Positions 21,894 through 64,000 of a stretch of DNA of 64,000 bases are shown here, piece by piece (within the stretch, counting starts at the first letter, position 1; each line of letters starts with the position of its first letter). This DNA is from a bacterium (GTDB lineage Bacteria > UBA10199 > 2-02-FULL-50-16 > JAJFLM01), in assembly GCA_965216315.1 (NCBI GenBank), contig CBDCFN010000016.1:1248001-1312000 (forward strand), read 5' to 3'. Both the position numbers and the translations under genes were made by a program. Under the pieces are notes generated by a model. The model saw only the letters and a list, made by a program, of their open reading frames with translations. It was not told the origin of the DNA and made no database searches.

Positions 21894-23093
21894 ATGTCAA
21901 CGCTGATGAAACAGAACTCATGGAAAGTGTCACCTGAGTTGCTTGATGAAATGCTTCAGCTGCGCCGTCATCTCCATAAATATCCTGAACTCAGTGGCGG
22001 TGAGGGTAAGACCGCTGAAGCCATTAAAGCACAACTCGATAAGCGACGGATAAATTATCGCGACGGGCTAGCCGGGCATGGTATTGTAGCTGAAATTCCC
22101 GGGAATAAATCAGGTCCAGCCATCGCGCTCCGAGCCGATATGGATGCGTTGCCGATTCATGAAGAAACGGGCCTATCGTTCGCTTCGGTACATAAAAATG
22201 TCATGCATGCCTGTGGCCATGATGGTCATAGTAGCATGCTGCTGGGAGCGGCGGCGCTGCTGCAGGAGGAGAAAGCGTCGCTGGAGTATCCGGTGCGCTT
22301 CATCTGGCAGCCTGCCGAAGAAAAGGCGACAGGCGCCCAGGAACTTATCAAAGCAGGTGTGCTCGATAATGTAGGATTGATTTTTTCCGGGCATATCGAT
22401 CCGCGTTATCCAAGCGGTAGTCTTGTCATTACAGAAGGCCCCGTTAATGCATCCAGCGACCAATTTGTTATCTCTATTCGTGGACAGCAGGGACATGGAG
22501 CGCGTCCGCACGAAGCGACGGATGCGATTGTTATAGGCAGCCTGCTGGTAACGGCTATTCAAACGATTATTTCCAGAGAAATTGATCCTGCCGAAGCCTC
22601 GGTGATTTCTGTCGGTGAATTTAACGCCGGCTCTGCACCCAATGTCATTGCAGGTGAGGCACAGCTAACGGGTACCGTACGTGCTCAGGAAACTACAGTG
22701 AGAAAAAAACTCGAACTGGCGCTCGAACGTGTTTGTAAAGCCGTCGCGAATCTGCACGGGTCTTCAATTGAATTTCGTCTCTACCCCCGAACGCCACCTC
22801 TTATTAATAGTCCTGAAATGACTGAATTAGCTAGAGCGGCGGCGCTTAAAGTGGTCGACAATGATAAAATCGTTCCATTACTTCAGGCCAATATGGGTGG
22901 GGAAGACTTTGCCTATTATCTTGAAAAAGTTCCCGGTGCTTATATTCGCTTTGGAGCTAGAATAGATGGCGGCGATTATTCTCCGGCACACTCCAACCGT
23001 TTTGATTTCGATGAAGCTGCATTGGAAGTAGGAGCTCTGTGGTTTGCCAGCGTGGCTTTTTTAGGAGCTCAGTATCTTGCCCAACAAAGCTAG
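21894..23093 (+). CDS. M20D amidohydrolase
   Basis: LRADMDALP, MHACGHD, QPAEE, GGEDF. Confidence 0.92.
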   Translation: MSTLMKQNSWKVSPELLDEMLQLRRHLHKYPELSGGEGKTAEAIKAQLDKRRINYRDGLAGHGIVAEIPGNKSGPAIALRADMDALPIHEETGLSFASVHKNVMHACGHDGHSSMLLGAAALLQEEKASLEYPVRFIWQPAEEKATGAQELIKAGVLDNVGLIFSGHIDPRYPSGSLVITEGPVNASSDQFVISIRGQQGHGARPHEATDAIVIGSLLVTAIQTIISREIDPAEASVISVGEFNAGSAPNVIAGEAQLTGTVRAQETTVRKKLELALERVCKAVANLHGSSIEFRLYPRTPPLINSPEMTELARAAALKVVDNDKIVPLLQANMGGEDFAYYLEKVPGAYIRFGARIDGGDYSPAHSNRFDFDEAALEVGALWFASVAFLGAQYLAQQS

Positions 23094-24270
23094 TCATAGC
23101 TGTACGGTACGTACCGCTAACGAACTCGATATTCCAGGCATTCAGAAGATGTTCCATGACAGCTATGGAGATGACTATCCTTATCACGGTTTCTATGAGG
23201 CAGCTTGGATCAAGCATGCCCTCTATAACGATAACATTGCGATGTTTGTGGCGGAAGACCCAGCGACCCATGAACTGCTTGGTTCGGCGTCTTTGGACTT
23301 TAGTGTGGGTGCCTTTACAGACCTGTTAGCAGAATTTGGGCGCTTGGTTGTTACCCCGGAAGCTCGTTGTCGCGGGGTTGGGCATGCTTTGATGAAAAAG
23401 CGTGTAGAGTATGTGGAGGACAAAATCCATATCGGAATCGTTGAGAACAGAGTCGTTCATCCCTATTCGCAAATGATTTCTCACGCTCATGGCTTTACGC
23501 CGGTGGGATTTCTTCCCCTGAAACACCTTTTCCACGCGCGTGAGAGTTTGAGCCTATTTGTGCGCTATTTTCAAGACGCCCTGAATTATCGAAAACCCGT
23601 TCCTCGGGTCATACCTGAAGTTCAACAATTGGCACAACTTGCGCTGGCAAGTCTGGGAATTGATAACGACCTTGAGGTTATGAGCGGCGCGCAACCCTAT
23701 ACACATCGAGTCCAGTTTGATTTAGAAGAACTTAAAAATAGTGTCTTGCCGGCGCTACTGCATATTGAGCGGGGAAGGCTGAGCCATCGGGAAGTCTTTG
23801 GGCCGGCGCGGCTTCATTATGGTTTTTTTCGCCTTCATGCCCGTCATGCCCAATATTTTATTGCGAGAGATCAGGCCCCTAAAGGTGAAATTGCGGGGGC
23901 CATTGGCTTTATTCGCGATAAACTGGAGAAAAGCCTTCGCATCTTCGAGCTGATAACCCCAAACGATGATGCCATTTATTTTCTACTCAAATCCTTATTG
24001 GATAAATGCCAGCAGCAGTGGGGACTGGAATATATCGAGGTTGATGTCAGCGCTTACGCGCCAAGGCTGCAACAGACCTTAATCGAGCTCGGTTTTGTCC
24101 CCGCCGCCTATCTTCCGGCCATGGCCTTCCATCAAATCGAACGGGTGGATGTAATCAAGATGTGTCGATTGCTCGTCCCGCTCGATGTTGGTGGGATTCA
24201 GCTAGCAAAGGACAATCAACGACAAATTGCAGACCTGGTAATTCAATCTATTCATGAAAAAATCCGCTAA
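23077..24270 (+). CDS. GNAT family N-acetyltransferase (tandem GNAT-like)
   Basis: GRLVVTPEARCRGVG acetyl-CoA-binding motif A. Start uncertain (TTG overlapping the upstream stop). Confidence 0.75.
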   Translation: MPNKASHSCTVRTANELDIPGIQKMFHDSYGDDYPYHGFYEAAWIKHALYNDNIAMFVAEDPATHELLGSASLDFSVGAFTDLLAEFGRLVVTPEARCRGVGHALMKKRVEYVEDKIHIGIVENRVVHPYSQMISHAHGFTPVGFLPLKHLFHARESLSLFVRYFQDALNYRKPVPRVIPEVQQLAQLALASLGIDNDLEVMSGAQPYTHRVQFDLEELKNSVLPALLHIERGRLSHREVFGPARLHYGFFRLHARHAQYFIARDQAPKGEIAGAIGFIRDKLEKSLRIFELITPNDDAIYFLLKSLLDKCQQQWGLEYIEVDVSAYAPRLQQTLIELGFVPAAYLPAMAFHQIERVDVIKMCRLLVPLDVGGIQLAKDNQRQIADLVIQSIHEKIR

Positions 24271-24317
24271 CTCCATTGAATTAAGGGTTAGCGGACTTTA
24301 TTGAGTCATTATATATG

Positions 24318-24390
<73 letters not shown>

Positions 24391-24394
24391 GTAA

Positions 24395-24470
24395 TAGGGG
24401 CTAGCGTCGCCCCCTCCGGTCGGCAAAGCCGCCGGAGCCTCCCCCTCTCGTTCGCATTACTCACTAGGGG
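24395..24470 (+). repeat. ~76-bp structured interspersed repeat, copy 1
   Basis: Near-identical to the reverse complement of 26900-26975; internal CTCCGGTCGGC-AAA-GCCGCCGGAG hairpin. Confidence 0.85.
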
Positions 24471-24537
24471 GATTTCCTCAAAGGAGACAGCTACTTAAGG
24501 GATTAGGGTGGGGTTTGGCAAGGGCTTTTTGTTGGAC

Positions 24538-24647
24538 TTATCCACAGCTCGTGCCCAGGAAAAAATCGGCAAAGAATCAAATCAAGTAAAATCAACTTTC
24601 TGCTGCCTGTGATTATGTTGAAAAAGTTATCCACAGCTTGTGGATAA
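24538..24647. promoter_or_regulatory. Three consensus DnaA boxes followed by an AT-rich tract
   Basis: TTATCCACA at 24538 and 24627, TGTGGATAA at 24639; AT-rich sequence at 24648-24730. Confidence 0.75.
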
Positions 24648-24800
24648 AAAAAGTAGCAATTTTTTTATAAGTAATTTCAGTGGATTAAAAAAATGTGAAT
24701 TTTGGCTATTGTCGATTTTGCTTTTTCGTAGTTTAACCCTGTTCATCAAGACGACATAGACATATAATCCTTGATAAAGCTTTTAGCAGGATCTTTGAAA

Positions 24801-25378
24801 TTCAATCTATCGTTTAGGGAAGAACCTGAACTGCCACTTGTTGGCGTCAGTAAGTGACTTCGAATCAATTCGAATCTGCAGCCAAGAGCTTTTCGTGAGT
24901 TAAGCTCTCTGTGGAGGGTCCGGAACCAGGGTTGACGATGTCGCTGAACAGCAAGTCGTAAGCAGGCACAAAGGTCATAATGGAGGAAGCAGCCGAAAGG
25001 TGACTTCACATCCGTTATCTCGATAAACTCTAAAGACCAGCGAGCGAGTATTCTTCGGGAGACTCAGGAGCAAGGTCATAAGAGTGGGGATCTGGAAGCA
25101 GAGACTAAGAGATGATGGAAAAAGCCATAGAGGCCCCTGGAAACCCCATAAGAGGACAGACAAGCAAAGTTTCCGGATCCAAGGAGGCAGAACTTGTCGG
25201 CGCCCATGGACGGCAAAAATCCCTGAAGCTGAGGCGGCCGGGTTAGAACTTGGGTATCCGCTCAAGCCGCTCGGAGAAACCCAACAGCAAGAGGGAATGG
25301 GAGCCTGAAAGGGCCACCGCCAACCATGAGTGTTACGCCACTCTAGAGGGGAGTAAGTTCTCTGAACGATAGATTGAA
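24801..25378 (+). ncRNA. Large structured non-coding RNA candidate (~580 nt, family unassigned)
   Basis: 21-bp terminal stem with two G-U pairs, many internal helices, UUCG/GAAA tetraloops, no credible ORF, downstream terminator. Confidence 0.75.
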
Positions 25379-25380
25379 CG

Positions 25381-25412
25381 CAAAAGCCCGAATCGAAAGG
25401 TTCGGGCTTTTG
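25381..25412 (+). terminator. Intrinsic terminator after the ncRNA candidate
   Basis: CAAAAGCCCGAATC-GAAA-GGTTCGGGCTTTTG hairpin. Confidence 0.8.
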
Positions 25413-25437
25413 TGCGTTTATCAAAGGAGCTTTCCAA

Positions 25438-25531
25438 TTAAATCCCTCCTAGCCTCCCTTTACAAAGGGAGGGACATCAAGTGGCAACCGTTATCTCCCC
25501 CTTTTGTAAAGGGGGACTAAGGGGGATTTAA
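25438..25531. repeat. REP-like inverted repeat (AATCCC...CCCTTT..AAAGGG type)
   Basis: TAAATCCCTCCTAGCCTCCCTTTACAAAGGGAG ... CTCCCCCTTTTGTAAAGGGGGACTAAGGGGGATTTA; two hairpin units in inverted orientation. Confidence 0.7.
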
Positions 25532-25947
25532 GCTGAGAGCGCCTTCGCCCTACGATACCAGGTAAAGGCGATGCCGAGTATTCCCATCAGGAGAGCATAG
25601 ACGAGAATACCGAGGAAGAGGACGCCGGATTGGGCGCCCTTGACGAGCTCGGAGTTCGGATCCTTAAAACAGACGGCGCAGGCCCATACAGAGCGACTCA
25701 GTAGCGGTGAAAACATGACGCTCAGGACAGTCAGGGCGAGGACCGCCTCGGGGAGCCGACGCATCTTTTGGCGGAACCAATAGCCGTAGAATGCCAATAC
25801 GACGATCATGACGACAGCGATGACACCGAGCCAAAGATGATTCGCGTCGCCGCTGCTCCGGTAACCCTGGAGACCCCACAGTGCGAGGATAATCGCGACG
25901 GTCAAGGAGCAACAGATAAAGAAGATGTGAAAGGCTTTAAGATTCAT
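25528..25947 (-). CDS. Membrane protein at the end of the cox operon
   Basis: Several TM helices, ACAVCF motif; co-oriented and adjacent to subunit IV. Confidence 0.7.
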   Translation of the reverse strand: MNLKAFHIFFICCSLTVAIILALWGLQGYRSSGDANHLWLGVIAVVMIVVLAFYGYWFRQKMRRLPEAVLALTVLSVMFSPLLSRSVWACAVCFKDPNSELVKGAQSGVLFLGILVYALLMGILGIAFTWYRRAKALSA

Positions 25948-25952
25948 AACCC

Positions 25953-26252
25953 TTATAATGCCAAATCGGAGTCATTAAGCACAGGAATTGCGAGGCAGAC
26001 CGCAAAGAAAAAGATCGTGAAGCCCAGAACCCAAAAGACCAGGCCACGTTCGGAGATGAGGTGCATAAAGTAGGTTGCCACGAGTCCGGCCTTAATGCAG
26101 GCGACGAAGAGGGCGACGATAATGGCCATGGTCATATTAAGGTCCAGATAACTGACAGCCACGGTTACAACCGTCAAACCGGCCAGGGCTGCAAAGACCG
26201 CCATATAGATCTTAATGTGCTTGTTTATCTCTTCTGCGGTATGTCCCGCCAT
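25953..26252 (-). CDS. Cytochrome c oxidase subunit IV family
   Basis: LAGLTVVTV..., KAGLVATYFMHL motif; position in operon. Confidence 0.85.
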   Translation of the reverse strand: MAGHTAEEINKHIKIYMAVFAALAGLTVVTVAVSYLDLNMTMAIIVALFVACIKAGLVATYFMHLISERGLVFWVLGFTIFFFAVCLAIPVLNDSDLAL

Positions 26253-26267
26253 CGAAACCTCCGTGTG

Positions 26268-26867
26268 TTACAATAAATATAAAGACGGAAATAGAAAAAT
26301 CCAGACGATATCGACAAAATGCCAATATAATCCTGATGACTCCACTCGTCCCAAATACATTTCAGGATTTGATTTCCAGAGCTTAAAACCAGGCAGCAGC
26401 AAATAGGCATTGATGATAATGCCGCCAATGACGTGGAGCCCGTGGAGTCCCGTGATAGTGAAGTATATCCCGTAAAAATTATGGGTCGACGGCAGCAGGC
26501 CATGATGAAATTTCGCTGAATATTCAAAGTATTTAATGACCAAGAAAGCGAAAGAAAGCAGCAGGGTCAGGGTCATAAACATTTTGTATCGACCCACTTT
26601 TTTCAACGCTAAAGACGCCCATGCCATCACGATAGTCACACTGGAGCCGATGAGTACCATCGTGTTCAGGGTGGCGAGCGGAACATTGAGACCGGTTTCA
26701 TGGTGAGAGGGCCACGAGGGATCGCCGGTTCTTAACAGGATATAGGCCGAGAAGAGGCCCCCAAATAGCATGACTTCAGAGGCCAAAAAGAGCCAGGTGC
26801 CTAGCTTCGCGTTGGTCATGCCCGTTAAGGGGTGGGGATGATCTATGTACTTAATTAGCGCTGACAT
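26268..26867 (-). CDS. ctaE: Cytochrome c oxidase subunit III
   Basis: WLFLASEVMLF, TGLHGLHV, LYWHFVDIVW. Confidence 0.93.
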   Translation of the reverse strand: MSALIKYIDHPHPLTGMTNAKLGTWLFLASEVMLFGGLFSAYILLRTGDPSWPSHHETGLNVPLATLNTMVLIGSSVTIVMAWASLALKKVGRYKMFMTLTLLLSFAFLVIKYFEYSAKFHHGLLPSTHNFYGIYFTITGLHGLHVIGGIIINAYLLLPGFKLWKSNPEMYLGRVESSGLYWHFVDIVWIFLFPSLYLL

Positions 26868-26899
26868 ACCTTCAAACTCCTTCTACTTTCGTTATCCTA

Positions 26900-26975
26900 C
26901 CCCTAGTGAGCAAAGCGAGCGAGAGGGGGAGGCTCCAGCGGCTTTGCCGACTGGAGGGGGCGACGCCAGCCCCTA
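26900..26975 (-). repeat. ~76-bp structured interspersed repeat, copy 2
   Basis: Inverted copy of 24395-24470 between subunits I and III; overlaps the subunit I stop codon. Confidence 0.85.
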
Positions 26976-28694
26976 CGGATGATACTGGGGCCAGTAATCG
27001 GCTTCATGACCCGGTACGCTGTATTCATACGGACCTCTAAAGACCTTGGGAGATCCGATAAAGTTGCCATGGGGCGGTGGGGTCGGCGTGTTCCATTCCA
27101 AGGTCGTGGCTTGCCATGGGTTGTCCGACTCGACCTGTTTCCCTTTCTTAATGCTTATGAAGAAATTGATGATAAAGAAGATCTGGGCGAGCCCTAACAA
27201 CCACGCACTGTAGGACATAAAGACGTTGGTGCCCTGAACCGCTTTAGCGGTCTCATAAAGGGTCGGGTCATAAAGGCGCCGGTTAACTCCGGCAAATCCT
27301 TGAATAAACATCGGCATGAAGATGCCGTTCATTGCAATAAAGGAGAGCCAGAAGTGTATTTTGCCCAGGGTACTGCTCATGAATCGCCCCGTCACTTTGG
27401 GGAACCAGTAATAGATTCCGGCAAAGAGGGCAAAAATGGTTCCCGGGGCGACGACGTAGTGAAAGTGGCCAATGACATAATAGGTGTCATGAAAATGAAT
27501 GTCGGAGGCGGCAAGACCTAAAGGAAGACCTGTCAGGCCGCCGATAGCGAACATGGGTAAAAAGGCCAGGGCAAAGAGCATTGGGACGTTATAGCGGATC
27601 GAGCCTCCCCAGAGGGTAATCAAGAGGACCGTTAAAATGATAACCGAGGGAACGGAGATAATCATCGTCGTCGCCTGGAAGAAGTTACTCATCGTTGTCC
27701 CCATACCCGTGATAAACATGTGATGAGCCCAGACAACGAAGGACATGAAGCCGAGGAAAAAAACGGAATAGACGAGTGTTTTGTAGCCGTAGAGTGGTTT
27801 CCGCGTATTGTTTGCGATGATTTCCGAGATGATACCCATGGCCGGAAGAATCAAGACGTAAACCTCCGGATGCGCTAAAAACCAAAAAAGGTGCTGCCAT
27901 AGCAGCGGGCTGCCGCCACCGGCCGCCTCGATCGGCGCCCCTCCGACGACGAGTCCGCTGGGCATAAAGAAGCTCGTGCCCGCGAGTCGGTCCATGAGCT
28001 GAAAGATGCCGGCGGCTTCGAGCGGTGGGAAGGCCAACAGGAGTAGAAACGAGGTGACAAATTGCGCCCAGACTAAGAACGGTAAGCGCATAAAGCTCAA
28101 ACCTTCAGCCCGGAGATGGATAATGGTTGCGAGTATGTTAACTGAGCCCAAGAGTGACGATGTAATCAGGAAGACCATGCCAATCAGCCAAACGGTTTGC
28201 CCGGTCGTCGCTATATTGGAGAGCGGGGGATAGGAGGTCCAGCCTGAGTTGGCGGCACCACCCGGAACAAAAAATCCAATGAGCATGACGACGCCGCCGA
28301 CGAAATAGACCCAATAACTCATCATGTTAAGTTTGGGATAGGCCATGTCCGGAGCACCGATTTGCAGCGGAACGAGATAGTTCCCAAAGGCCCCGACGGC
28401 CAATGGCACGACCCCTAAAAAGATCATAATCGTGCCGTGCATCGCGCCGAGTGAATTATAGAACTCCGGCAACATGACGCCGCCCGGCATAGAGGTCTCG
28501 CTAAAGAGCCCGCCGATAAGTGGAATCGGTTGGTAAGGATAAGCCAATTGCCACCGCATCAACATCATGAGGCAGAAGCCAAAAAAGAGGAAGCAGAGCG
28601 CCGTGATCCCGTACTGAATGCCGATGACCTTGTGATCGGTAGAGAAGATGTATTTTTGAATAAAATTCAATTCGTGATGATCGTGCTCACTCAT
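26973..28694 (-). CDS. ctaD: Cytochrome c oxidase subunit I (A-type heme-copper)
   Basis: STDHK, GWTSYPPL, HPEVY, WAHHMF, HFHY. Confidence 0.96.
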   Translation of the reverse strand: MSEHDHHELNFIQKYIFSTDHKVIGIQYGITALCFLFFGFCLMMLMRWQLAYPYQPIPLIGGLFSETSMPGGVMLPEFYNSLGAMHGTIMIFLGVVPLAVGAFGNYLVPLQIGAPDMAYPKLNMMSYWVYFVGGVVMLIGFFVPGGAANSGWTSYPPLSNIATTGQTVWLIGMVFLITSSLLGSVNILATIIHLRAEGLSFMRLPFLVWAQFVTSFLLLLAFPPLEAAGIFQLMDRLAGTSFFMPSGLVVGGAPIEAAGGGSPLLWQHLFWFLAHPEVYVLILPAMGIISEIIANNTRKPLYGYKTLVYSVFFLGFMSFVVWAHHMFITGMGTTMSNFFQATTMIISVPSVIILTVLLITLWGGSIRYNVPMLFALAFLPMFAIGGLTGLPLGLAASDIHFHDTYYVIGHFHYVVAPGTIFALFAGIYYWFPKVTGRFMSSTLGKIHFWLSFIAMNGIFMPMFIQGFAGVNRRLYDPTLYETAKAVQGTNVFMSYSAWLLGLAQIFFIINFFISIKKGKQVESDNPWQATTLEWNTPTPPPHGNFIGSPKVFRGPYEYSVPGHEADYWPQYHP

Positions 28695-55798: not shown

Positions 55799-58700
55799 AT
55801 GGGAGAAACAGCCAAAGTTACAGGCTCTTCAGCTGCGGTCGATCAGCAACAAGGCGTTGACACTGAAAAGGGCTCGGATAGCGACAAGACGAATAAGTCT
55901 CAAGTTAAGATAAACGGTCCGGTTATCGATGCCTTTACGCAGGCCGGTACCACTGCGATGTCATTGGTCCATGGTGGTTTCATGCTGCCCTTTGCTGTCA
56001 GTCAGTACCATGGCAAGGTTTATCAAGGTCAAATAGCCGAAGCGGAGAAGGAAGAGAAGTCTATTGAAGATTATGCCAAGAAGGCAGAGGCCGCAACCGA
56101 TCCCAAGACTAAAAATGACCTCTATTCGCGTGTCCTCTATTTCGGACGGCGACGCCTGACCAAACCTTTTTCCAGCGATGATGCCAAACTGAAATGGCGA
56201 TTAAAAGTTGCCAACTGGGCGATAGAGAACCAGGACTACCATATAGCCTACGATCTCTTAGTAACGACACACGCCGGTGTTGCGGGATCGATGAGCGGAT
56301 CACCAATTCTTTATAATATCAAGGATCCTGCACATGAGCAGGCCGTCATCAAACTCTTTTCCATTACCACCGACCAATGGATTACTGCAGCCGATGCCAA
56401 GCATCAATTAGGAGACCTGGATGCGTCCGGTTCCATTATTCAAAAGGCCTTTAAGGTAAATGTCTGGAAGACGAAGCGCATCAAAGCTGGCGTAAACAAT
56501 GGTCGACTTGGTGTTTACTTTCAGTTTGGGAAAGAGGAACAGGATAACAGAGCTCTGTTGATGAAGAAAAAAGACGCATATAAACAATCAACGGATCAGA
56601 TTTTGGCAAAATATAATAAAATCGATCAGGAAAAATTGGTCGGCTTACTGATAGAATCGGGAGCCGCAATGCTGGGATTTCTCGACATTGGAAACGTAAT
56701 TAGTGGAAAAGCAATGTCTGATGTCAGTAAGAATGTCGATGGCATTAAAGAATTATTTAAAGATCACGGTTTAAATAAGGCGTTAGTCGAAGACATTAAG
56801 AAACGCGAAGCTGAATTGGCGACAATCAAGCCAACGACGGATGCGAATCGCAGAAGAATTGCCGCGCTCAGTAAGCAAATAGAGCACAATAGACAGGCTA
56901 TTGAGAAGATCAAAATCCTCGATCAACTCCGCAAAGAGATCAAGCATTTAGATATAGATGATATGATCGATAAGACGCAGGTAAAGATTGTCACATCAGC
57001 GCTTAACTCCTTACCCTTAGCTTATTTCGAGGGTAATGATGAGTATAATGCAATCATCAACTATGCGTATGCGGAAAAGCAGCAAGGGAAGGTAATCGAC
57101 TGGATCCTCAGTAAGCATCCTCAGGGTTTTCGCCAGGCCCTTCACTACAATATCGAAACCGATGACGTCTGTTATGACCGCAAATTAGGCAAAGAGCTTG
57201 ATTCATGTGTTGATTACTATGAGATGGATCCTAAGGATGCTCCCGATCTTCCATTTAGCAAGGTTTTTCGAAAGAGCAATGATGCCGATATCGTACGTCT
57301 TATGAAGTATATCGACAAGGTAAAAACCTATGATCTCATACCCGGCGGAAAGATTGGGATGCAGGGAAACTTTGATAATAGTCGTCATATTTATGTCCAC
57401 ACGATAAGTGATCTAAGAGCCCTAACAAAGTCTATTAATAAAACCTTTGGTGTCGATGAACTTCCCACAGGGATACAGAAAGGCATTCTGGAGGTTGAAA
57501 AGCTGGAAAATGACGAAAACAAGGAAGACGACAGCCATCAGCGCGTTCTCGCTCTGAATGAGAGCCTGGGGCGGATTGACGATTATGCTAAGCGCATGAA
57601 GGGGCTCGAGAATCTGTTGGCGACAACGAAAAACGCCGCGACGCCGAACGATATTCCTTCATCGGCTGATCTGCGGGCCTTTGTCGATGAGTCCTTAAAG
57701 GATACCGATGCCTTGATCAAAAGCCTCGAGGCAAGAAAGACCTACTTAGAAAATATCATCATCACTAAAGATAATCGTTGGCTCGGTCAGCCACCGGATG
57801 CGGAATGGAAGGCGATCAAGTGGCGCAAAAAAGAATTTAAAGAAGTTAAGGAAGATCTGCAGAAACTCTACTCGGCACGAACGGGACTCAAGACCTTTCA
57901 AGCTAATTACGTCCATGACAATAAACATATGAAGGTCAATGCCGATACGATCGAGACCTTTAAATTGATGCACTTTGACGGCATCCTGCTAGCCGAAGCC
58001 CGTCACGCCCGGCGTCTCATGGAAGGGGAATGCGTAATGGTTGACGGGATTCCTATCTTGAAGAAAAAAGGCGATCCCGCCGGAGCGCGCGATGTCAGCC
58101 CAATTCATAGTGAGATGACCTTGGATATGAATCCTTACGAATATTTTATTAACTCGAAACGTGACCTGACGGGTCAATCGAAGACACCGAAGCCGGTAAC
58201 GATTACTTCTGAGCACATTGCGGCCTATCATAAGCGCTTCAGTGAACTGCGGCAGCGCTTGAGTAAGGTCGCACTGGCCCGGAGCGTCGATGCCAAGATC
58301 ATCGTATTGAAGAAGCAGGCCGAGACTGTTAACGATAACGATTGGTTTTCATTGAAAACGGTTGAAAACTTCGGACGCTTTCTGGCCGATTCGACGTTTT
58401 GGGACGTCGACCCGAAGGCGTATGACGACAAAGACCCTTTCAATTTCATGGCGGCACGCTACATGCAGGTCCGAAACGAAATCAACCAGGCCCATAATAA
58501 TAACGATGCGGATAAGTTCTTCTCGGCCCAGGTCCATTTTCTCCAGTTGGAGCACGCCAGCGATCACAGTTTCCTTGATAAAGTCTTTAAAGAAGCGGAG
58601 TTCGCATACAATCTCAAAGTCGGTGTCACTGTTGTAACCCTCAGTGCCTTTACGGCGGGCATCGCGGATAAGTTGATGGCGCCGATGCTCGTCCGTCTCG

Positions 58701-60001
58701 CAATGACAGGACGCTACGGGATGGCCGCAGCGCGCATCGCTCAGCCCTTGATCTGGAACGGGACCTTTGTCGCCGGCAATCGCATCTATGGCGGAGCCTT
58801 TCAAGACGGCTGGAGCGGGGCCTGGAAGGGGGCCAAGAGCATCGTCCAAGATCCGCTCGGCTTCGGCATCGAGACGATCAAGATGGCCCTGATGATGAAA
58901 TTTATTGGCGGAACCGGCCGCGCCTCGCACAAACTGTTTAATAAGCTCGTCGGCAATAAGGCCCAAGCCTATTTACAAAAGATGAAGATCCCCATCGTCG
59001 AGAATGGCGTTGTTCGCATGCCGACCGGCTGGCAAATCGCGAAAGAAATGTTCGCCTACGGGACCGTGCGCATCGCGCGGCCCACCTGGATGTTTGGCGC
59101 CGAGGTTGGGGGCTTCCAGCTCTGGGAGGCCCTCGATAAGACCGGGCTCCAGCTCTGGCATACCGGCTCCATAGATCCCGTCGGCAATTTGCAGCACGCC
59201 TTCGAATGGAAGCAAATTAAGCACGGTGGCCAATTCATAATCGGGCTTCGTTTAGGTCACGTCCTCTCTCTACCGGTTACCAAGCCGATCAATAACGCGA
59301 CGGAAAAATGGATCTATAAAAAATTTGAAACGGAATTTGCGGAGTATAACAAGTTTACCGAAGAGACCATAGCCGCTATTCGTCGCTTTGATCCGGAGAA
59401 AGGCGATCACGAGGCCTTTGTAAAAGATATGCGCAGCCGCCTCAAAAAACATCGTAAGTTTCTCGACCGTTTCCCTAAGGATATCACTTATGTCAATGAA
59501 CATAAGTTCTTTAATGAGCAGTTGGGCAAGCAACTCGACTATTTTGAGACAACTTATAAGGCAACGGCTCCCATCTTTGCTAAGGGAAATTCCTATGGGG
59601 TCAGTGCGATGGTCGTCAGTGATAAATACAAGACGAAGATGGACTTAGAACTCGAAGTGGCCACCGGAATTAACTACACGTTCTCTAATCATCGTGGCCC
59701 TGAGCTCGTGACCGCCTTGCATGAGTCACCCTCCGTGAATTCCCTCCGTGTCTTCGATAACGGGGTCATTCAGGCAGAAATCACGCATCCGCTGACCCAA
59801 CAAACGCATTCCGTCGTGTTCATACCTAAAGGTGCCGTAAATGGGAGTCACGTGACCAAGATGCAGGCGACGGCTGCGAGCCCGAAACCGAAGCCCAAAC
59901 CCGATCTCAAGGTGATTCAAGGCGGCGGCGAGACGACCACGACACAGACGAAACCAACGCCAAAGACGACGACGGCACAGCCGAAAAAAATCGCCAAGTA
60001 A
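55799..60001 (+). CDS. Giant orphan helical carrier protein with hydrophobic region (paralog of 37745-43587)
   Basis: 1400 aa; coiled coils; shares three ordered similarity blocks with the 37745/40438 product. Confidence 0.75.
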   Translation: MGETAKVTGSSAAVDQQQGVDTEKGSDSDKTNKSQVKINGPVIDAFTQAGTTAMSLVHGGFMLPFAVSQYHGKVYQGQIAEAEKEEKSIEDYAKKAEAATDPKTKNDLYSRVLYFGRRRLTKPFSSDDAKLKWRLKVANWAIENQDYHIAYDLLVTTHAGVAGSMSGSPILYNIKDPAHEQAVIKLFSITTDQWITAADAKHQLGDLDASGSIIQKAFKVNVWKTKRIKAGVNNGRLGVYFQFGKEEQDNRALLMKKKDAYKQSTDQILAKYNKIDQEKLVGLLIESGAAMLGFLDIGNVISGKAMSDVSKNVDGIKELFKDHGLNKALVEDIKKREAELATIKPTTDANRRRIAALSKQIEHNRQAIEKIKILDQLRKEIKHLDIDDMIDKTQVKIVTSALNSLPLAYFEGNDEYNAIINYAYAEKQQGKVIDWILSKHPQGFRQALHYNIETDDVCYDRKLGKELDSCVDYYEMDPKDAPDLPFSKVFRKSNDADIVRLMKYIDKVKTYDLIPGGKIGMQGNFDNSRHIYVHTISDLRALTKSINKTFGVDELPTGIQKGILEVEKLENDENKEDDSHQRVLALNESLGRIDDYAKRMKGLENLLATTKNAATPNDIPSSADLRAFVDESLKDTDALIKSLEARKTYLENIIITKDNRWLGQPPDAEWKAIKWRKKEFKEVKEDLQKLYSARTGLKTFQANYVHDNKHMKVNADTIETFKLMHFDGILLAEARHARRLMEGECVMVDGIPILKKKGDPAGARDVSPIHSEMTLDMNPYEYFINSKRDLTGQSKTPKPVTITSEHIAAYHKRFSELRQRLSKVALARSVDAKIIVLKKQAETVNDNDWFSLKTVENFGRFLADSTFWDVDPKAYDDKDPFNFMAARYMQVRNEINQAHNNNDADKFFSAQVHFLQLEHASDHSFLDKVFKEAEFAYNLKVGVTVVTLSAFTAGIADKLMAPMLVRLAMTGRYGMAAARIAQPLIWNGTFVAGNRIYGGAFQDGWSGAWKGAKSIVQDPLGFGIETIKMALMMKFIGGTGRASHKLFNKLVGNKAQAYLQKMKIPIVENGVVRMPTGWQIAKEMFAYGTVRIARPTWMFGAEVGGFQLWEALDKTGLQLWHTGSIDPVGNLQHAFEWKQIKHGGQFIIGLRLGHVLSLPVTKPINNATEKWIYKKFETEFAEYNKFTEETIAAIRRFDPEKGDHEAFVKDMRSRLKKHRKFLDRFPKDITYVNEHKFFNEQLGKQLDYFETTYKATAPIFAKGNSYGVSAMVVSDKYKTKMDLELEVATGINYTFSNHRGPELVTALHESPSVNSLRVFDNGVIQAEITHPLTQQTHSVVFIPKGAVNGSHVTKMQATAASPKPKPKPDLKVIQGGGETTTTQTKPTPKTTTAQPKKIAK

Positions 60002-60017
60002 AAACGGATCAATCGAT

Positions 60018-62066
60018 ATGGGTGGAAATGCCGCAGTAAAAGGAAACCGCAAAGGCTATGGAGCCAGGCCTACTCGTGCAAACAGTACGACCTCGGCTAA
60101 AAAATTTAAAGGGAGTCCTGTAAAGGTTAAAATCAATACGACAACAACAACCAGCACAAGTGCCCACACAAAGCAGACACCGAATAAAACGTCCGCTTCA
60201 ACGACTGAAGTGAAGATTACGGATCTTGATGTGTACTCAATTGCAACGGAAAGCACACCGGCTACATATCAACGTACGGTCGCGCCAGCGCCCAAACCTA
60301 AGCCTCAACAAGTATCAGCACCGGTAACGGTCCGCCTCGATATGTCAGTTCGGGCACTGAACTTGATTCAAAACGCCAGTCAAATAAATCCGTTTTTTTC
60401 AACTTTGGCTGACTTCGTACGCAAATCTCCTGGGAAATCCCTCGCTAACATGACAAAGTCCGAACGCACAGCAATCCCCGGGAGCGCCTGGAAACAGTTT
60501 TCTATCAACATTAACAAGCTCTATGCGCTTGGTGTACATCATAATGACGTCAAAAGATCTAATATCACTTGGGATGGCCATACACTCCGCTTGATAAATT
60601 TCCAGAAGGCCGAATTAGGGGTTCGTTCTATCGACGATTTACGACGCGCCCAGAAAATCCAGCACTATGATATAGAAAACCCTAAAGCCAACCCGCTGGA
60701 AAGCAAGATGGCCATCAAGGATCGTCCGACAGCTCCTGTCTTTGGATTGGAGCAGGGTAAGATCTATCTGGAATTTCCTAGCGATACGGCCAAGCTAATC
60801 CTTAATGCGAAAGGCGGCATGGTTCCAATAACTCAAAATGGAAATAACTATAAAATCGAGAATAAAAGTAGCGAAGACATCTATCTTTTTCGCGGCGGTG
60901 ATTCCAAGCAATTTGTCATCATTGGCAAAGGACAAAGTCGTGTTGCAACCCATAATGACGTACTCCAAATCGGCCAGGGGAGCTATACCCTGAGAAAAAC
61001 GACCGATCACGCTGGAGCAGTTACGGGCCAAATAGGAAAACGAACGGTCACGATTGATTATTTACCCTTGCCGCCTAAACAGCAGGCCCCGGGCAATCAT
61101 CAGGCTCCCATCTCGGGTCAGGTAAGCGCCAAACCTCGCCAAGGACCCACAGTACCGAAAACAGGCGACGCTAAGGTCATCGTGGCAAATCAAACAACAC
61201 CTTATCAACGTCATCGATTGTCTCCGCAGCAGCAAACAGTTGTTGATCAGTGGCTCCGACAACATAGCTTAAAACTTGCACAACTGACGCGTGAGCAGCA
61301 AATTAAGCTCGTCCAGCATTTAGTCCTGTACCATAATTGGAAAAGTACGGATATCGCAGCGCTGACCGGTCACGCTGAGCTACAAGTTCTTTACAATAAC
61401 TATGTCATTCAACCTGCCAGCATTGTGCGGCGAATACTTGGATGGCTGTTAGGGACCAGTTCCGGTGGTAATGCAGGGGCTCACTTGTCGGGAACGCGAA
61501 AAGTCGAACCATGGATGTACTACAATATCATCGATGCGCCCCGTAATGCCAGGCTGTGGATCGATGGCAAGTGGGTCGACGTTCAAGCTGTTTACGGCAA
61601 TCAGGTGACTTATTCCTATATTGATAGGAGTGTCGTTCCCAAGCGACGGCTTACCCGCACAACCCCGCTGACCAAAAAGATGTTGCTCGCGACATTTGCC
61701 GAGTTGCCTATCAGCCAGATTCATCCGACTGAAAATGGGCTCTCTCCGATACGATATGCTGCGGCTCATAAATATACGGATATTCCGATATTGGTTTATC
61801 GACATTTCAAGTCAGATGGCTCGGTTGAGTATTACGCTCTGGATGGACACCATCGCCTTGCAGTACTGGCAAAATTGGGGCGAAAGAGTGTTCGCGTGCG
61901 CTTTGCGCCTTCAGATATTTCACGTATACAGGATTTTCTGAATAAACCCCGCAATCCGGCAATGCCGGTTCCGCGTCATGCCAAGGACTTAGAAATCTGG
62001 CAGGCACGCTATGATGATTACCGAGGGGGTCCCGGCGGAGAACCGATGACATCAGTCAATCCCTAA
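60018..62066 (+). CDS. Modular orphan protein: shared leader + degenerate kinase C-lobe + FHA-like + WKS module + ParB/Srx-like domain
   Basis: HNDVKRSN...INFQKA; YKIENKSS...NDVLQIG; YYALDGHHRL. Confidence 0.75.
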   Translation: MGGNAAVKGNRKGYGARPTRANSTTSAKKFKGSPVKVKINTTTTTSTSAHTKQTPNKTSASTTEVKITDLDVYSIATESTPATYQRTVAPAPKPKPQQVSAPVTVRLDMSVRALNLIQNASQINPFFSTLADFVRKSPGKSLANMTKSERTAIPGSAWKQFSININKLYALGVHHNDVKRSNITWDGHTLRLINFQKAELGVRSIDDLRRAQKIQHYDIENPKANPLESKMAIKDRPTAPVFGLEQGKIYLEFPSDTAKLILNAKGGMVPITQNGNNYKIENKSSEDIYLFRGGDSKQFVIIGKGQSRVATHNDVLQIGQGSYTLRKTTDHAGAVTGQIGKRTVTIDYLPLPPKQQAPGNHQAPISGQVSAKPRQGPTVPKTGDAKVIVANQTTPYQRHRLSPQQQTVVDQWLRQHSLKLAQLTREQQIKLVQHLVLYHNWKSTDIAALTGHAELQVLYNNYVIQPASIVRRILGWLLGTSSGGNAGAHLSGTRKVEPWMYYNIIDAPRNARLWIDGKWVDVQAVYGNQVTYSYIDRSVVPKRRLTRTTPLTKKMLLATFAELPISQIHPTENGLSPIRYAAAHKYTDIPILVYRHFKSDGSVEYYALDGHHRLAVLAKLGRKSVRVRFAPSDISRIQDFLNKPRNPAMPVPRHAKDLEIWQARYDDYRGGPGGEPMTSVNP

Positions 62067-63451
62067 TAACCGCGCATCCCCCATGCCCCTAAGATGTGTG
62101 CAAACGCTTCAATGCCTTGCTGAGTCATATCGTCGACGGTTTCTTTATCAAATGTGAGCCCGGTTAGCAGCTGTTGATAGCCGGTTTGAACGGCATTCAG
62201 TTCGTCGATGGATTCGAGAAAGGTCGGGTAAGGATTTCGTTCCGCTGCCAAGAGGAATCCGGCAACATGGTCAAGCACATCGTTGACGGCCAGTCCGGCC
62301 CGGATCACGAGAGTATCTTGTGGCCCGTATGTTTGTTCCAGTTGCGCTGCGATCTCATCGATATAGGTCCGACGTTCATCGTGCAAGATTTGCTGAATCC
62401 TACCGGCCTTGTCGGTGTTGCTCGTAACGCTGCGGAGGACCTCGTGAGTATTCGCATCACGGACGCTAGCCCTAAGCTCTTCGCTGTGTGGGTTGAAAAA
62501 GATATCTCCGTATTCGCGGTCGATATCCGCAACTGGCAGTATCTTTGTCTTATGGTGCCGGAGAAAGTTGGCGTCAGCGTTAAAGCTGACAAAGGCGACG
62601 CGGGGCTGTACCTGATCCAGGAGCGTGTGCAGTGGCTCAAATGAATGAACATCCATCCGGCCACTGACGACGAGCACATCGACGAGTCTGGCAGCCTGCT
62701 TTTGATCGATATGGTCGGGAATGTCCGTCGCCGAAATCCCCATAACGCTGAGTCCGCCGAAGCGCATGACGGTATCGGCATCAAAGGGAAAGCGGTTTTC
62801 GTGAGAATTGAGGTGGGCTAAGCGTGCTCCCGGTAAAGTCCATTGCGCCATGCGATGGGTCGGTGGTTGCAGCAACTGGGGATGCAAGGAGCGTATCGAT
62901 GCAACGGAATCAATATCTCCGCTGATACGTTCCGGTTCGCGCCCCGGGTAAAAAACTTGATAGGGACGTTCTCGTTCTCCAGCAGGTTTGCCAAAGGAGA
63001 GCGCCCGCCACCAGCCTTGCCCGCGAAAACGCGCAGTATAAAAGTTCTCATTAATTTGGATATCATCGCCGTCAAGTACAGCCAAGCGTACCGGCCGGGC
63101 CACCCCGATCGATTCATTGATCGCGTTGGTCTCGTTGCGGATCTGAATATACATTTCCGGAGAGACGCTATCGGCGACTTCCGAGAAGAGGAGTTGTCTA
63201 TCCTCGGCCGGCAACCTCAATAGACCGTTCGTTGAATCGGCTTCGAGGCGTTGGGTGATATAGTCGATATCGCGGTCATAGGCGAGCGCGGCTAACTCCG
63301 CGGTAATGGCCCGTCCATCATCTAAGGTGCGGTCGATGCCTAGATGATCGAGAGCACTCGACCACCGGGTCAACGAATCAATAATCCGCGGCGTCGGATG
63401 GGCTAGAGCGGCTGCCGCACAGACCGGAGCTGATGACGTGAAGGCAAGCAT
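62063..63451 (-). CDS. Orphan hypothetical protein
   Basis: 462-aa ORF convergent on 60018; sigma28-like promoter immediately upstream. Confidence 0.65.
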   Translation of the reverse strand: MLAFTSSAPVCAAAALAHPTPRIIDSLTRWSSALDHLGIDRTLDDGRAITAELAALAYDRDIDYITQRLEADSTNGLLRLPAEDRQLLFSEVADSVSPEMYIQIRNETNAINESIGVARPVRLAVLDGDDIQINENFYTARFRGQGWWRALSFGKPAGERERPYQVFYPGREPERISGDIDSVASIRSLHPQLLQPPTHRMAQWTLPGARLAHLNSHENRFPFDADTVMRFGGLSVMGISATDIPDHIDQKQAARLVDVLVVSGRMDVHSFEPLHTLLDQVQPRVAFVSFNADANFLRHHKTKILPVADIDREYGDIFFNPHSEELRASVRDANTHEVLRSVTSNTDKAGRIQQILHDERRTYIDEIAAQLEQTYGPQDTLVIRAGLAVNDVLDHVAGFLLAAERNPYPTFLESIDELNAVQTGYQQLLTGLTFDKETVDDMTQQGIEAFAHILGAWGMRGY

Positions 63452-63459
63452 GCTCTCCC

Positions 63460-63486
63460 TTATCTACAAAATCTCGCAAAAGTTGC
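63460..63486 (-). promoter_or_regulatory. Sigma28-like promoter GCAAC-N14-GTAGATAA
   Basis: Minus strand GCAACTTTTGCGAGATTTTGTAGATAA, 8 nt before the ATG. Confidence 0.6.
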
Positions 63487-63688
63487 TCATTGAAGCCACA
63501 AACAGTCTCATTAAGTATTCAAGTGAATATCTATATATAATCGATAGATAGCGCAATCTCTTTAAGTTCCATGCTATCCATTCGCAGCTTTTCGAATTGC
63601 GCATTTCAATGGACCTAAAAGGCCATAGCTATTTCAGCAGCTACTGAGGTCCCGATCCCCCAATTAAGCGCCTCTTCACTCCAGGATA

Positions 63689-63790
63689 TGTATACATATT
63701 CATTTGTATACAGAATTAATAAATATAAGATCTATTGAATTCAATAAGTTATATATAATTATTTTAACATTTTTTGGCACATTAGTTGCA
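63689..63790 (+). promoter_or_regulatory. Sigma54 promoter with a different upstream palindrome
   Basis: TGTATACA-N8-TGTATACA (63689-63712), AT-rich spacer, TGGCACATTAGTTGCA (63775). Confidence 0.75.
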
Positions 63791-63815
63791 TATATCTCAG
63801 GTCAGGAGACATGAG

Positions 63816-64000
63816 ATGCTATCCATTGCTTTACAACTTAGCAGCCTGGCGAAGAACTTAATCGATAAACAGGCCACAACGGCAAAAAAGTCCGAAGCTG
63901 CCAAAGCGGCCCCTGTTGCAGGGACATCTTTATATGGTCCCGCGCAAGTTCCAGTCGTAGCGGCTAATGGCACCGTAAAGCATTCTCTTTTTGGGGCGAG
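63816..64000 (+). CDS. Hypothetical protein (3' partial)
   Basis: AGGAG RBS, ATG, open to the window end (MLSIALQLSSLAKNLIDKQATTAKKSEAAK...). Confidence 0.6.
   Translation, partial: MLSIALQLSSLAKNLIDKQATTAKKSEAAKAAPVAGTSLYGPAQVPVVAANGTVKHSLFGA

Follow-up and report, generated by a model that had tools for sequence, protein, structure and literature searches.

The stretch of DNA analysed here comprises 64,000 nucleotides (nt) of contig CBDCFN010000016.1 in the bacterial assembly GCA_965216315.1 (lineage UBA10199; hereafter the window) and carries a candidate RNA gene at 24801-25378 on the + strand, which extends from the 5' strand through the 3' strand of a long terminal stem, P1. Its 5' neighbour is a transfer RNA gene (tRNA-Glu, 24317-24390, - strand; Rfam scan), and on the 3' side a - strand cytochrome oxidase operon follows (COX4, COX3 and COX1 from 25953; Pfam). 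The source genome (G000, 2.96 Mb) holds a single copy of the RNA sequence. An initial annotation, made by a model from the letters alone, had suggested a new or highly diverged large structured RNA at this place, and conservation, covariation, the lack of a matching Rfam family and contigs from RNA libraries all bear this out. That the gene represents a real new class of structured RNA is in our judgement close to certain, as no curated family and no paper searched describes it.

Folded alone, the + strand reaches a minimum free energy of -214.4 kcal/mol (z score -5.65), a value that none of 100 dinucleotide shuffles matched, and the - strand folds more weakly (z -2.73). For alignment A1 (27 copies) RNAalifold returned 140 pairs, 113 of them with compensatory changes. 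The consensus used below derives from alignment A3, which holds 53 non-redundant copies, and comprises 182 pairs in 33 helices as given by RNAalifold plus one added pseudoknot. Canonical pairs fill 89.3% of its cells, against 72.3% in column-wise shuffles (0 of 500 as high) and 37-48% when the partners are slid by one to three columns; both sides have changed at 161 of the 182 pairs, and the covariation score is 0.526 versus 0.220. Conserved G-U pairs are frequent on the + strand, for example at pair 548/690 (GU in 46 copies) and pair 140/186 (UG in 38), which identifies this strand as the RNA strand. The 21-nt arms singled out by the initial annotation (24801-24821 and 25358-25378) are 90% complementary as DNA, with both mismatches reading as G-U in + strand RNA, and the terminal stem that they form is 88.9% paired in the 53 homologs, with double changes at 21 of 21 pairs. 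In the consensus model the fold is one of three multi-helix domains closed by a P1 of 19-21 base pairs (bp), with the following parts (helix numbers are those of A3):

24801-25378, + strand: structured RNA, delimited by alignments and homolog matches
24801-24819, + strand: 5' strand of P1, partner 25360-25378 (helix 1; 19 of 19 pairs double-changed, 92.2% paired)
24824-24967, + strand: 5' domain, a multi-helix junction (helices 2-8, 82-97% paired)
24824-24834/24958-24967, 24835-24843/24949-24957 and 24853-24856/24942-24945, + strand: helices of the 5' domain
24857-24871/24929-24941, 24875-24881/24909-24915 and hairpin 24886-24907, + strand: further helices of the 5' domain
24916-24927, + strand: hairpin GG[GUCCGGAA]CC, a 2-bp stem with an 8-nt loop (24918-24925) and palindromic core, proposed as a symmetric kissing loop
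24973-25135, + strand: central domain (helices 10-20)
24973-24976/25132-25135, 24980-24983/25125-25128, GAAA-capped hairpin 24985-25009 and 25011-25018/25112-25119, + strand: helices of the central domain
25028-25031/25081-25084, 25035-25038/25074-25077, UUCG-capped hairpin 25051-25060 and hairpin 25087-25106, + strand: further helices of the central domain
25138-25141, + strand: UGGA, which would pair as a pseudoknot with the UCCA hairpin loop at 25178-25181 (helix 21, 95.3% paired)
25144-25351, + strand: 3' domain, the most conserved part (helices 22-33)
25144-25147/25348-25351, 25151-25154/25341-25344, 25159-25164/25193-25198 and 25170-25173/25184-25187, + strand: helices of the 3' domain
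25199-25209/25324-25334, 25212-25214/25319-25321, 25220-25224/25292-25296 and 25228-25234/25281-25288, + strand: further helices of the 3' domain
25238-25243/25269-25274, 25250-25254/25262-25266 and 25300-25306/25311-25318, + strand: remaining helices of the 3' domain
25360-25378, + strand: 3' strand of P1 (helix 1)
25376-25419, + strand: intrinsic terminator with U-rich tail (hairpin of -27.9 kcal/mol, z -7.55)

All but one of the pairs in the 5' domain show changes on both sides. The terminator follows the RNA directly, just as had been predicted, and many homologs have the stem start AAAGCCCG in common at the 3' end. Twelve helices had been drawn from the single sequence, and A3 retains five and discards seven, including all three proposed pseudoknots. 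Besides the terminal stem, AGAGCTT/AAGCTCT (87% paired), GACC/GGTC (98%) and GACAAG/CTTGTC (93%) recur across the copies, and ACTCT/AGAGT does so in four of its five pairs, as CTCT/AGAG (98-100% each). GTTGGCG/CGCCAAC (63%), CCAGGG/CCCTGG (66-68%) and ATAATGGA/TCCGTTAT (43%) are not kept, and GCGGC/GCCGC fails with one double-changed pair only, although it is 82% paired; the register beside it, 25238-25243/25269-25274, is 96.8% paired with six of six pairs double-changed. The three pseudoknots reach 63%, 61% and 52%, and a 10-bp pairing of GGGUCCGGAA with UUCCGGAUCC exists in the window copy only.

A mutual-information scan with average-product correction and a stack scan were run for extra pseudoknots, and only UGGA/UCCA (25138-25141/25178-25181) stood out. 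At its columns 456/529 the copies have U-A 41 times, G-C four times, A-U twice and U-G once, with five unpaired, and the pairing covaries more than the competing CCA/UGG. The alignment gives moderate support to a long-range contact, which might form within one molecule or between two. Both scans were noisy, because the conserved purine and pyrimidine tracts can pair with many partners; several single-stranded tracts are near-invariant across the copies, among them GGAAUGGG, AAGAGGACAG and UGGAAAU. One metagenome copy (L122) carries an insertion of about 28 nt at A3 columns 484-511, in the 3' strand of the helix equivalent to 25159-25164, a site that consequently tolerates an extra hairpin.

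At gathering score, Rfam 15 (4227 models) reported the tRNA alone in the window. At E<=10 the interval 24500-25700 gave 12 weak matches, none relevant and none to a large-RNA family; they sit on the terminator or on hairpins of flanking repeats, bar one 14-bit chance match on the - strand. Among 19 related loci the same collection found nothing in eight and a single tRNA among the other 11. No match at E<=10 was obtained in the whole genome for ROOL (RF03087; gathering score 99.1 bits), for which 14 control genomes were equally without hits, or for OLE (RF01071; 50 bits), for which 14 control genomes gave no positive. GOLLD was without a match at gathering score and at E<=10 in the scans with all 4227 families, which included no GOLLD-only run. 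With no match to a known family the proposed novelty stands. Identity with RNase P, transfer-messenger RNA (tmRNA) or 6S RNA was rejected, since the genome encodes them elsewhere (224.6, 170.4 and 81.3 bits). The initial annotation had set aside the first two, correctly, and none of the three matches at the candidate; RNase P RNA of type A (RF00010, 224.6 bits) lies on another contig. Two tmRNA matches exceed the cut-off in G000, C2:1-347 (144.3 bits) and C16:1980965-1981321 (170.4 bits), and one of them fills the end of a 2.2-kb contig; a second copy, e.g. on a mobile element, or an assembly duplicate is possible. No description of the RNA turned up in the accessible parts of the literature on the lineage and on new large or ornate RNA classes.

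Coding potential is likewise rejected, and the earlier statement that no credible open reading frame (ORF) is present proved right: insertions and deletions relative to the window copy ignore codons (658, 152 and 95 runs of lengths 1, 2 and 0 mod 3), and Pfam reports nothing in the three ORFs that overlap the RNA. Long stop-free stretches do occur on the - strand (149 amino acids in the window; median 108 codons over the copies), which may simply reflect a + strand that, by our impression, is rich in purines. Within about 7 kb on each side of 21 loci, no ORF cluster is common to more than three genomes and clusters are confined to one or two genera. A conserved protein partner in cis is therefore rejected for these loci.

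Homologs are numerous and, as detailed above, their covariation is extensive. Full-length relatives measure 577-636 nt, and in nhmmer searches even weak matches span the whole unit. With the window copy as query, BLAST gave matches (about 70% identical, spanning about 550 nt) in 8 of 41 genomes, counting the source genome, and in 19 of 93 species genomes across the class, which here equals the phylum. Two covariance models were built on the 3' core, R1 on 25197-25337 and R2, with diverged copies added, on 25197-25335; R1 finds the RNA in 31 of the 93 phylum genomes and R2 in 36 (25 of the 63 genomes of high quality). By R2, families f3 (6/6), f14 (4/4) and f12 (3/3) are entirely positive, families f8 (0/13), f16 (0/5), f13 (0/4) and f21 (0/4) are entirely negative, and both other genomes of the source family lack a match. 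The RNA is widespread yet non-universal within the phylum. When 185,579 species genomes were scanned for an exact pattern, only 17 loci on 10 contigs emerged, all from metagenome-assembled genomes named 'Deltaproteobacteria bacterium', 'uncultured Nitrospirales bacterium' or 'bacterium', one isolate name including UBA10199. The same pattern gave 27 loci in metagenomes, and 22 of these are confirmed family members; L118, L120, L121, L130 and L136, which have neither an nhmmer nor a model match, are taken to be chance matches. Viral contigs (pattern scan) as well as phage and plasmid records (BLAST) contain no match to the RNA, and a phage or plasmid origin is rejected on this basis.

Parts of the stretch are contained in 12 public RNA libraries. 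In three of them, metatranscriptomes from different studies, contigs that are 90-99% alike together cover 24825-25359; among these a 417-nt contig with a word depth of 77 lies over 24953-25359 and a 383-nt contig over 24864-25246. The contigs of the RNA runs give no cover at 24402-24810 or from 25371 onwards, where the flanks of relatives may differ, and one DNA run spans the stretch completely, at depth 4. These matches provide moderate support for an RNA that is made and abundant.

The loop of the hairpin at 24916-24927 is self-complementary. A palindrome of at least 4 nt is present there in 52 of the 53 A3 copies, and it comes in six types: UCCGGA (34 copies), CCGG (10), UCAUGA (3), GCCAUGGC (3), UGGCCA (1) and ACCGGU (1). 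In a scan of 592 well-filled columns this was the sole site with 6-mer palindromes in at least 60% of the copies and in four forms. On a tree built without the loop columns, CCGG gave way to CAUG in the core on at least two occasions outside family f14 and on another within it, and to GGCC once, beside a UCCGGA sister, and the flanks changed once from U..A to A..U; at least four core switches are independent. No second intramolecular site was found to change in step with the loop core, and adjacent loop bases cannot pair among themselves, so that pairing with the same loop of a second molecule is the simplest reading. Self-duplex energies of the loop range from -6.6 to -17.8 kcal/mol, and loops with different 6-nt cores fit each other poorly. 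In PMC12286853, comparable switches between palindromes (from GGCC to GAUC or AGCU) back intermolecular kissing loops observed by cryogenic electron microscopy, namely L9.3 of OLE and L21a of GOLLD; judged from the alignment, the loop described here shows palindrome-preserving covariation as in section 8 of that paper. Homo-oligomerisation through the loop is, on this evidence from aligned sequences, probable.

Upstream of the RNA the sequence is organized as follows:

24538-24546, + strand: distal perfect DnaA box, TTATCCACA, recurring at about -225 to -235 from the RNA start in homologs
24627-24647, either strand: inverted pair of perfect DnaA boxes, TTATCCACA n3 TGTGGATAA, at about -125 to -140 from the RNA start
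24648-24708, + strand: A+T-rich spacer with a conserved AAT(C/G/A)ATTTCA-like motif at 24660-24669 (upstream sequences and alignment A4)
24709-24737, + strand: promoter-like block predicted from the alignment, TTGTCG (24709-24714), 17 nt, TTTAAC (24732-24737)
24745-24800, + strand: presumed 5' leader with a putative start, ending in the conserved (C)UCUUUGAAA(A) block at 24791-24800

The three perfect boxes (24538, 24627 and 24639) are the only ones in the window and form the sole cluster in the genome with at least three perfect boxes within 400 nt. In A4 the inverted pair is the best-conserved upstream block; relatives have it about 125-140 nt before the RNA, with a further box about 90-100 nt higher up and often one more some 50 nt above it. 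Counted over the 600 nt that precede the RNA at 21 loci, 29 perfect boxes are present where about 0.1 are expected. At least one perfect box stands at 16 of the 21 loci and a box with at most one mismatch at 20 of them; of the 103 boxes in these loci that deviate at one position at most, 52 sit at recurring offsets within 4.5% of the sequence. A promoter-like arrangement of TTGNNN-17 nt-(G)TTTAA or GTCTAA is seen again in G085, G074, G010, G092, G090, G024, G006 and G035 (A4). We interpret the boxes chiefly as a regulatory element for the promoter of the RNA, a role in titrating DnaA being the lesser possibility, and slightly favour control of its transcription by DnaA.

An origin of replication (oriC) at the RNA locus was considered and rejected. 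The cumulative GC-skew minimum of G000 lies at about 320-330 kb of contig C15, where dnaA is found at 328867-329352, and contig C16 has positive skew across the RNA locus (0.065 before and 0.049 after) with no change of sign. Two perfect DnaA boxes stand at C15 329732 and 329743; skew, dnaA and these boxes place oriC at about 329.7 kb of C15. The skew of C16 reaches zero at about 1.30-1.345 Mb, a terminus zone 30-70 kb from the RNA locus; at about 58000-64000 of the window (C16 about 1.306-1.345 Mb) it falls from about +0.09 to about zero and then turns negative. A terminus-linked position is rejected from skew and dnaA distances. On shared contigs, dnaA lies 505 kb from the RNA in G038 and 185 kb from it in G017, so the chromosomal position is not conserved. 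Outside oriC and the RNA locus, other pairs or triplets of perfect boxes occur at C16:1951081-1951511, 1624541-1624647, 1918934-1919152 and 2259085-2259239; these may be further DnaA-regulated promoters.

Four genomes, all of family f15, carry the RNA in head-to-tail arrays, with four copies each in G018 and G088, three in G039 and two in G087; the spacers measure some tens of nt at most. Two metagenome contigs also contain arrays, and in G014 (family f12) two copies are separated by about 880 nt. In the tree the copies of G018, G039 and G087 group by genome, and each of the four G088 copies has its own metagenome counterpart. All array copies examined keep the CCGG loop core. The DnaA boxes stand upstream of the first unit, which suggests a single precursor transcript; the units are probably made as one RNA and then excised. 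The block CTCTTTGAAAA precedes P1 in nearly all copies, inner array units included. Just 5' of P1 in the window this conserved (C)UCUUUGAAAA block occupies 24791-24800, its leading C being A in the window copy; the block has no assigned pairing partner and might serve processing or protein binding.

We read the locus as a free-standing gene for an uncatalogued large ornate RNA that pairs with itself and whose synthesis is linked to DnaA, and we assign this reading a probability of about 0.62. The RNA, about 580 nt long in the window and about 590-630 nt in relatives, would be transcribed from the + strand, starting at a promoter about 70 nt downstream of the conserved DnaA-box cluster and stopping at the intrinsic terminator. 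In the array genomes two to four diverged head-to-tail copies would share one precursor and would be cut out at their long P1 stems. The exposed 8-nt loop of the 5' domain would pair with its counterpart on another molecule in a symmetric kissing contact, and the RNA would act as a homodimer or a higher homo-oligomer, like OLE, ROOL and GOLLD. Production of the RNA would follow the state of DnaA, i.e. replication initiation or the growth state, and DnaA, presumably bound at the boxes, might either raise or lower it. A more far-reaching version, in which the RNA founds a self-assembling class that builds, through the loop and under the gate of DnaA, a symmetric homodimer or a bigger particle made of RNA only, we offer tentatively and with less than even odds. 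If it holds, array genomes could form mixed particles of paralogs, since their copies share the CCGG core, and this would be the first large ornate RNA with synthesis wired to the initiator of chromosome replication.

Several observations weigh against this reading. The closing GG/CC of the loop hairpin never vary, so that the hairpin itself (helix 9) is without covariation support; these G and C runs could also pair with other conserved GG/CC tracts; independent palindrome switches are few, about four; and copy L081 lacks the loop through a deletion. A sigma-70 consensus scan does not call the promoter-like block, the -10-like element has neither the usual A2 nor the usual T6, and the DnaA boxes could serve DnaA titration unrelated to the RNA. 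The library contigs come from close relatives and carry neither strand nor ends, and carry-over of DNA could account for them. Finally, the RNA was not found in 57 of the 93 genomes, all 13 of f8 included, and is no universal housekeeping RNA.

Part of the evidence also fits an RNA that serves mainly as a protein scaffold or sponge (a ribonucleoprotein like OLE with its partner proteins, an RNA that binds RNA polymerase like 6S, or a CsrB-type sponge), with the loop as a protein site or a minor dimer contact. Long, near-invariant single-stranded tracts are what protein or tertiary contacts typically leave, OLE combines dimerisation with a ribonucleoprotein nature according to published abstracts and PMC12286853, and the idea is compatible with our preferred explanation. 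It is nevertheless unlikely as the main function: no protein gene is kept beside the RNA, with no ORF cluster in more than three genomes among the 21 loci, and a protein site would be expected to keep its sequence and not to switch between CCGG, CAUG and GGCC. The boxes, for their part, could mark the locus as a DnaA-binding chromosomal element, such as a second origin or a datA/DARS-like site that titrates or reactivates DnaA, with the RNA as an accessory of replication control whose transcription, for example, opens the A+T-rich region or primes synthesis. Three to four boxes followed by an A+T-rich stretch at fixed spacing, at 20 of 21 loci, and the uniqueness of the cluster in the genome agree with this. 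In contrast, the skew minimum and dnaA on C15, the constant sign of the skew at the RNA locus, the varying distance to dnaA (505 and 185 kb) and a length of 580 nt with 33 covarying helices, far beyond the need of transcriptional activation at an origin, make such an element quite improbable.

By analogy with known catalytic RNAs one may further think of a large ribozyme that would excise itself from the tandem precursor or act on another substrate. Its size, invariant unpaired nucleotides and pseudoknot-like contacts are within the range of RNase P and of group I and II introns, and head-to-tail units with a closing P1 recall self-processing repeats; but no Rfam ribozyme family matches, most genomes have a single copy and hence no need of self-excision, and no conserved exon-like flank or target sequence was seen, which leaves this idea very improbable. 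Hardly credible is any explanation at the level of DNA or of a message, be it an element like a miniature inverted-repeat transposable element (MITE), a cis-acting leader or riboswitch, or a protein gene. The 21-nt terminal inverted repeats, the dispersed repeats on both flanks and the - strand stop-free stretches (149 amino acids in the window) could be cited for it, yet the sequence is single-copy in the genome, its pairing is kept via G-U on one strand only, and compensatory changes affect 161 of 182 pairs. A protein gene conflicts with the distribution of insertions and deletions (658, 152 and 95 for 1, 2 and 0 mod 3) and with the empty Pfam result, and a cis leader is ruled out because a terminator comes immediately after the RNA and the genes beyond it vary from locus to locus, often in opposite orientation.

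Very few bacterial noncoding RNAs exceed 500 nt and have dozens of conserved helices, and to our knowledge every such class carries out fundamental chemistry or, like OLE, ROOL and GOLLD, forms unexpected RNA-only assemblies. By its size and covarying helices (at least about 500 nt) the new RNA is of the kind of large ornate homo-oligomeric RNAs, which is a functional kind and not a homology family. Judging by sequence features, it stands beside OLE, ROOL and GOLLD, with the symmetric kissing-loop signature as the common sign, and is set apart from them by its phylum, the absence of a phage or tRNA association, its tandem arrays and its conserved DnaA-box promoter. OLE (RF01071, 616 model positions) is alike in its length of about 600 nt, many covarying helices, invariant tracts and single chromosomal copy; there is no sequence or structure match at E<=10. 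Whereas OLE sits beside its partner gene oapA, the RNA described here has no conserved adjacent gene at the 21 loci, and we know of no report of upstream DnaA boxes or tandem arrays for OLE. ROOL (RF03087, 574 model positions) is of about the same length, and ROOL and GOLLD are likewise large ornate RNAs without a known protein partner or function. The dimerisation initiation site of human immunodeficiency virus type 1 has a loop with a self-complementary 6-nt core and purine flanks, and its variants keep the palindrome; it is a small element of a viral genome as against one loop of a 580-nt cellular RNA, and the two are alike in contact mechanism alone. RNase P RNA of type A resembles the new RNA in being large and multi-domain with long-range contacts, and the tract GGAGGGUCCGG is loosely reminiscent of its P4 region; tandem copies and a patchy spread (36 of 93 genomes) are unfit for an essential enzyme. 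OLE has a symmetric kissing loop whose inner tetranucleotide switches palindromes (PMC12286853), a further likeness, and is an RNA of Bacillota extremophiles and anaerobes, another phylum (PMC12054373). PMC12286853 describes ROOL as an 8-mer and GOLLD as a 14-mer, homo-oligomers held by kissing loops and A-minor contacts, and has both encoded in phages or prophages, often near tRNA islands. Unlike these two, the RNA has no viral, phage or plasmid match and no conserved tRNA linkage, and neither model matches it at E<=10.

Our results add a well-supported new RNA class from an uncultivated phylum, together with a 53-copy alignment. The palindromic loop offers a specific, testable contact, and the conserved DnaA boxes are a regulatory handle that the other classes lack, from which a hypothesis on the timing of RNA synthesis and a possible route to its cellular function follow. 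It is also uncommon for the gene of a large RNA to recur in tandem arrays whose copies have diverged.

The genes around the RNA in the window are not kept beside it in relatives. At 21894-24270 the window encodes an M20 peptidase and a GNAT acetyltransferase (397 amino acids, with the GNAT domain N-terminal), and at 25528-28694 on the - strand a small membrane protein and, after it, cytochrome oxidase subunits IV, III and I; other genomes keep not one of these genes next to the RNA. The link to a tRNA proposed by the initial annotation is true of the window, where tRNA-Glu is present, and does not extend to the neighbourhood of relatives: within about 7 kb on each side, only 4 of 20 related loci have a tRNA, the nearest about 2 kb off, and one further locus has one 774 nt downstream of the RNA. 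The tRNA of the window is incidental, given how rare and distant tRNAs are at related loci. On both sides (24395-24500 and 25420-25550) the RNA gene is flanked by copies of a dispersed, hairpin-forming repeat of about 75 nt. The downstream copy has 49-nt arms that are 78% complementary, and each repeat query gives about 39-40 matches in the genome. The flanking repeats have raised depth in the DNA run and were the source of spurious Rfam matches to microRNA families; the repeat looks like a repetitive extragenic palindromic (REP) or MITE-like element.

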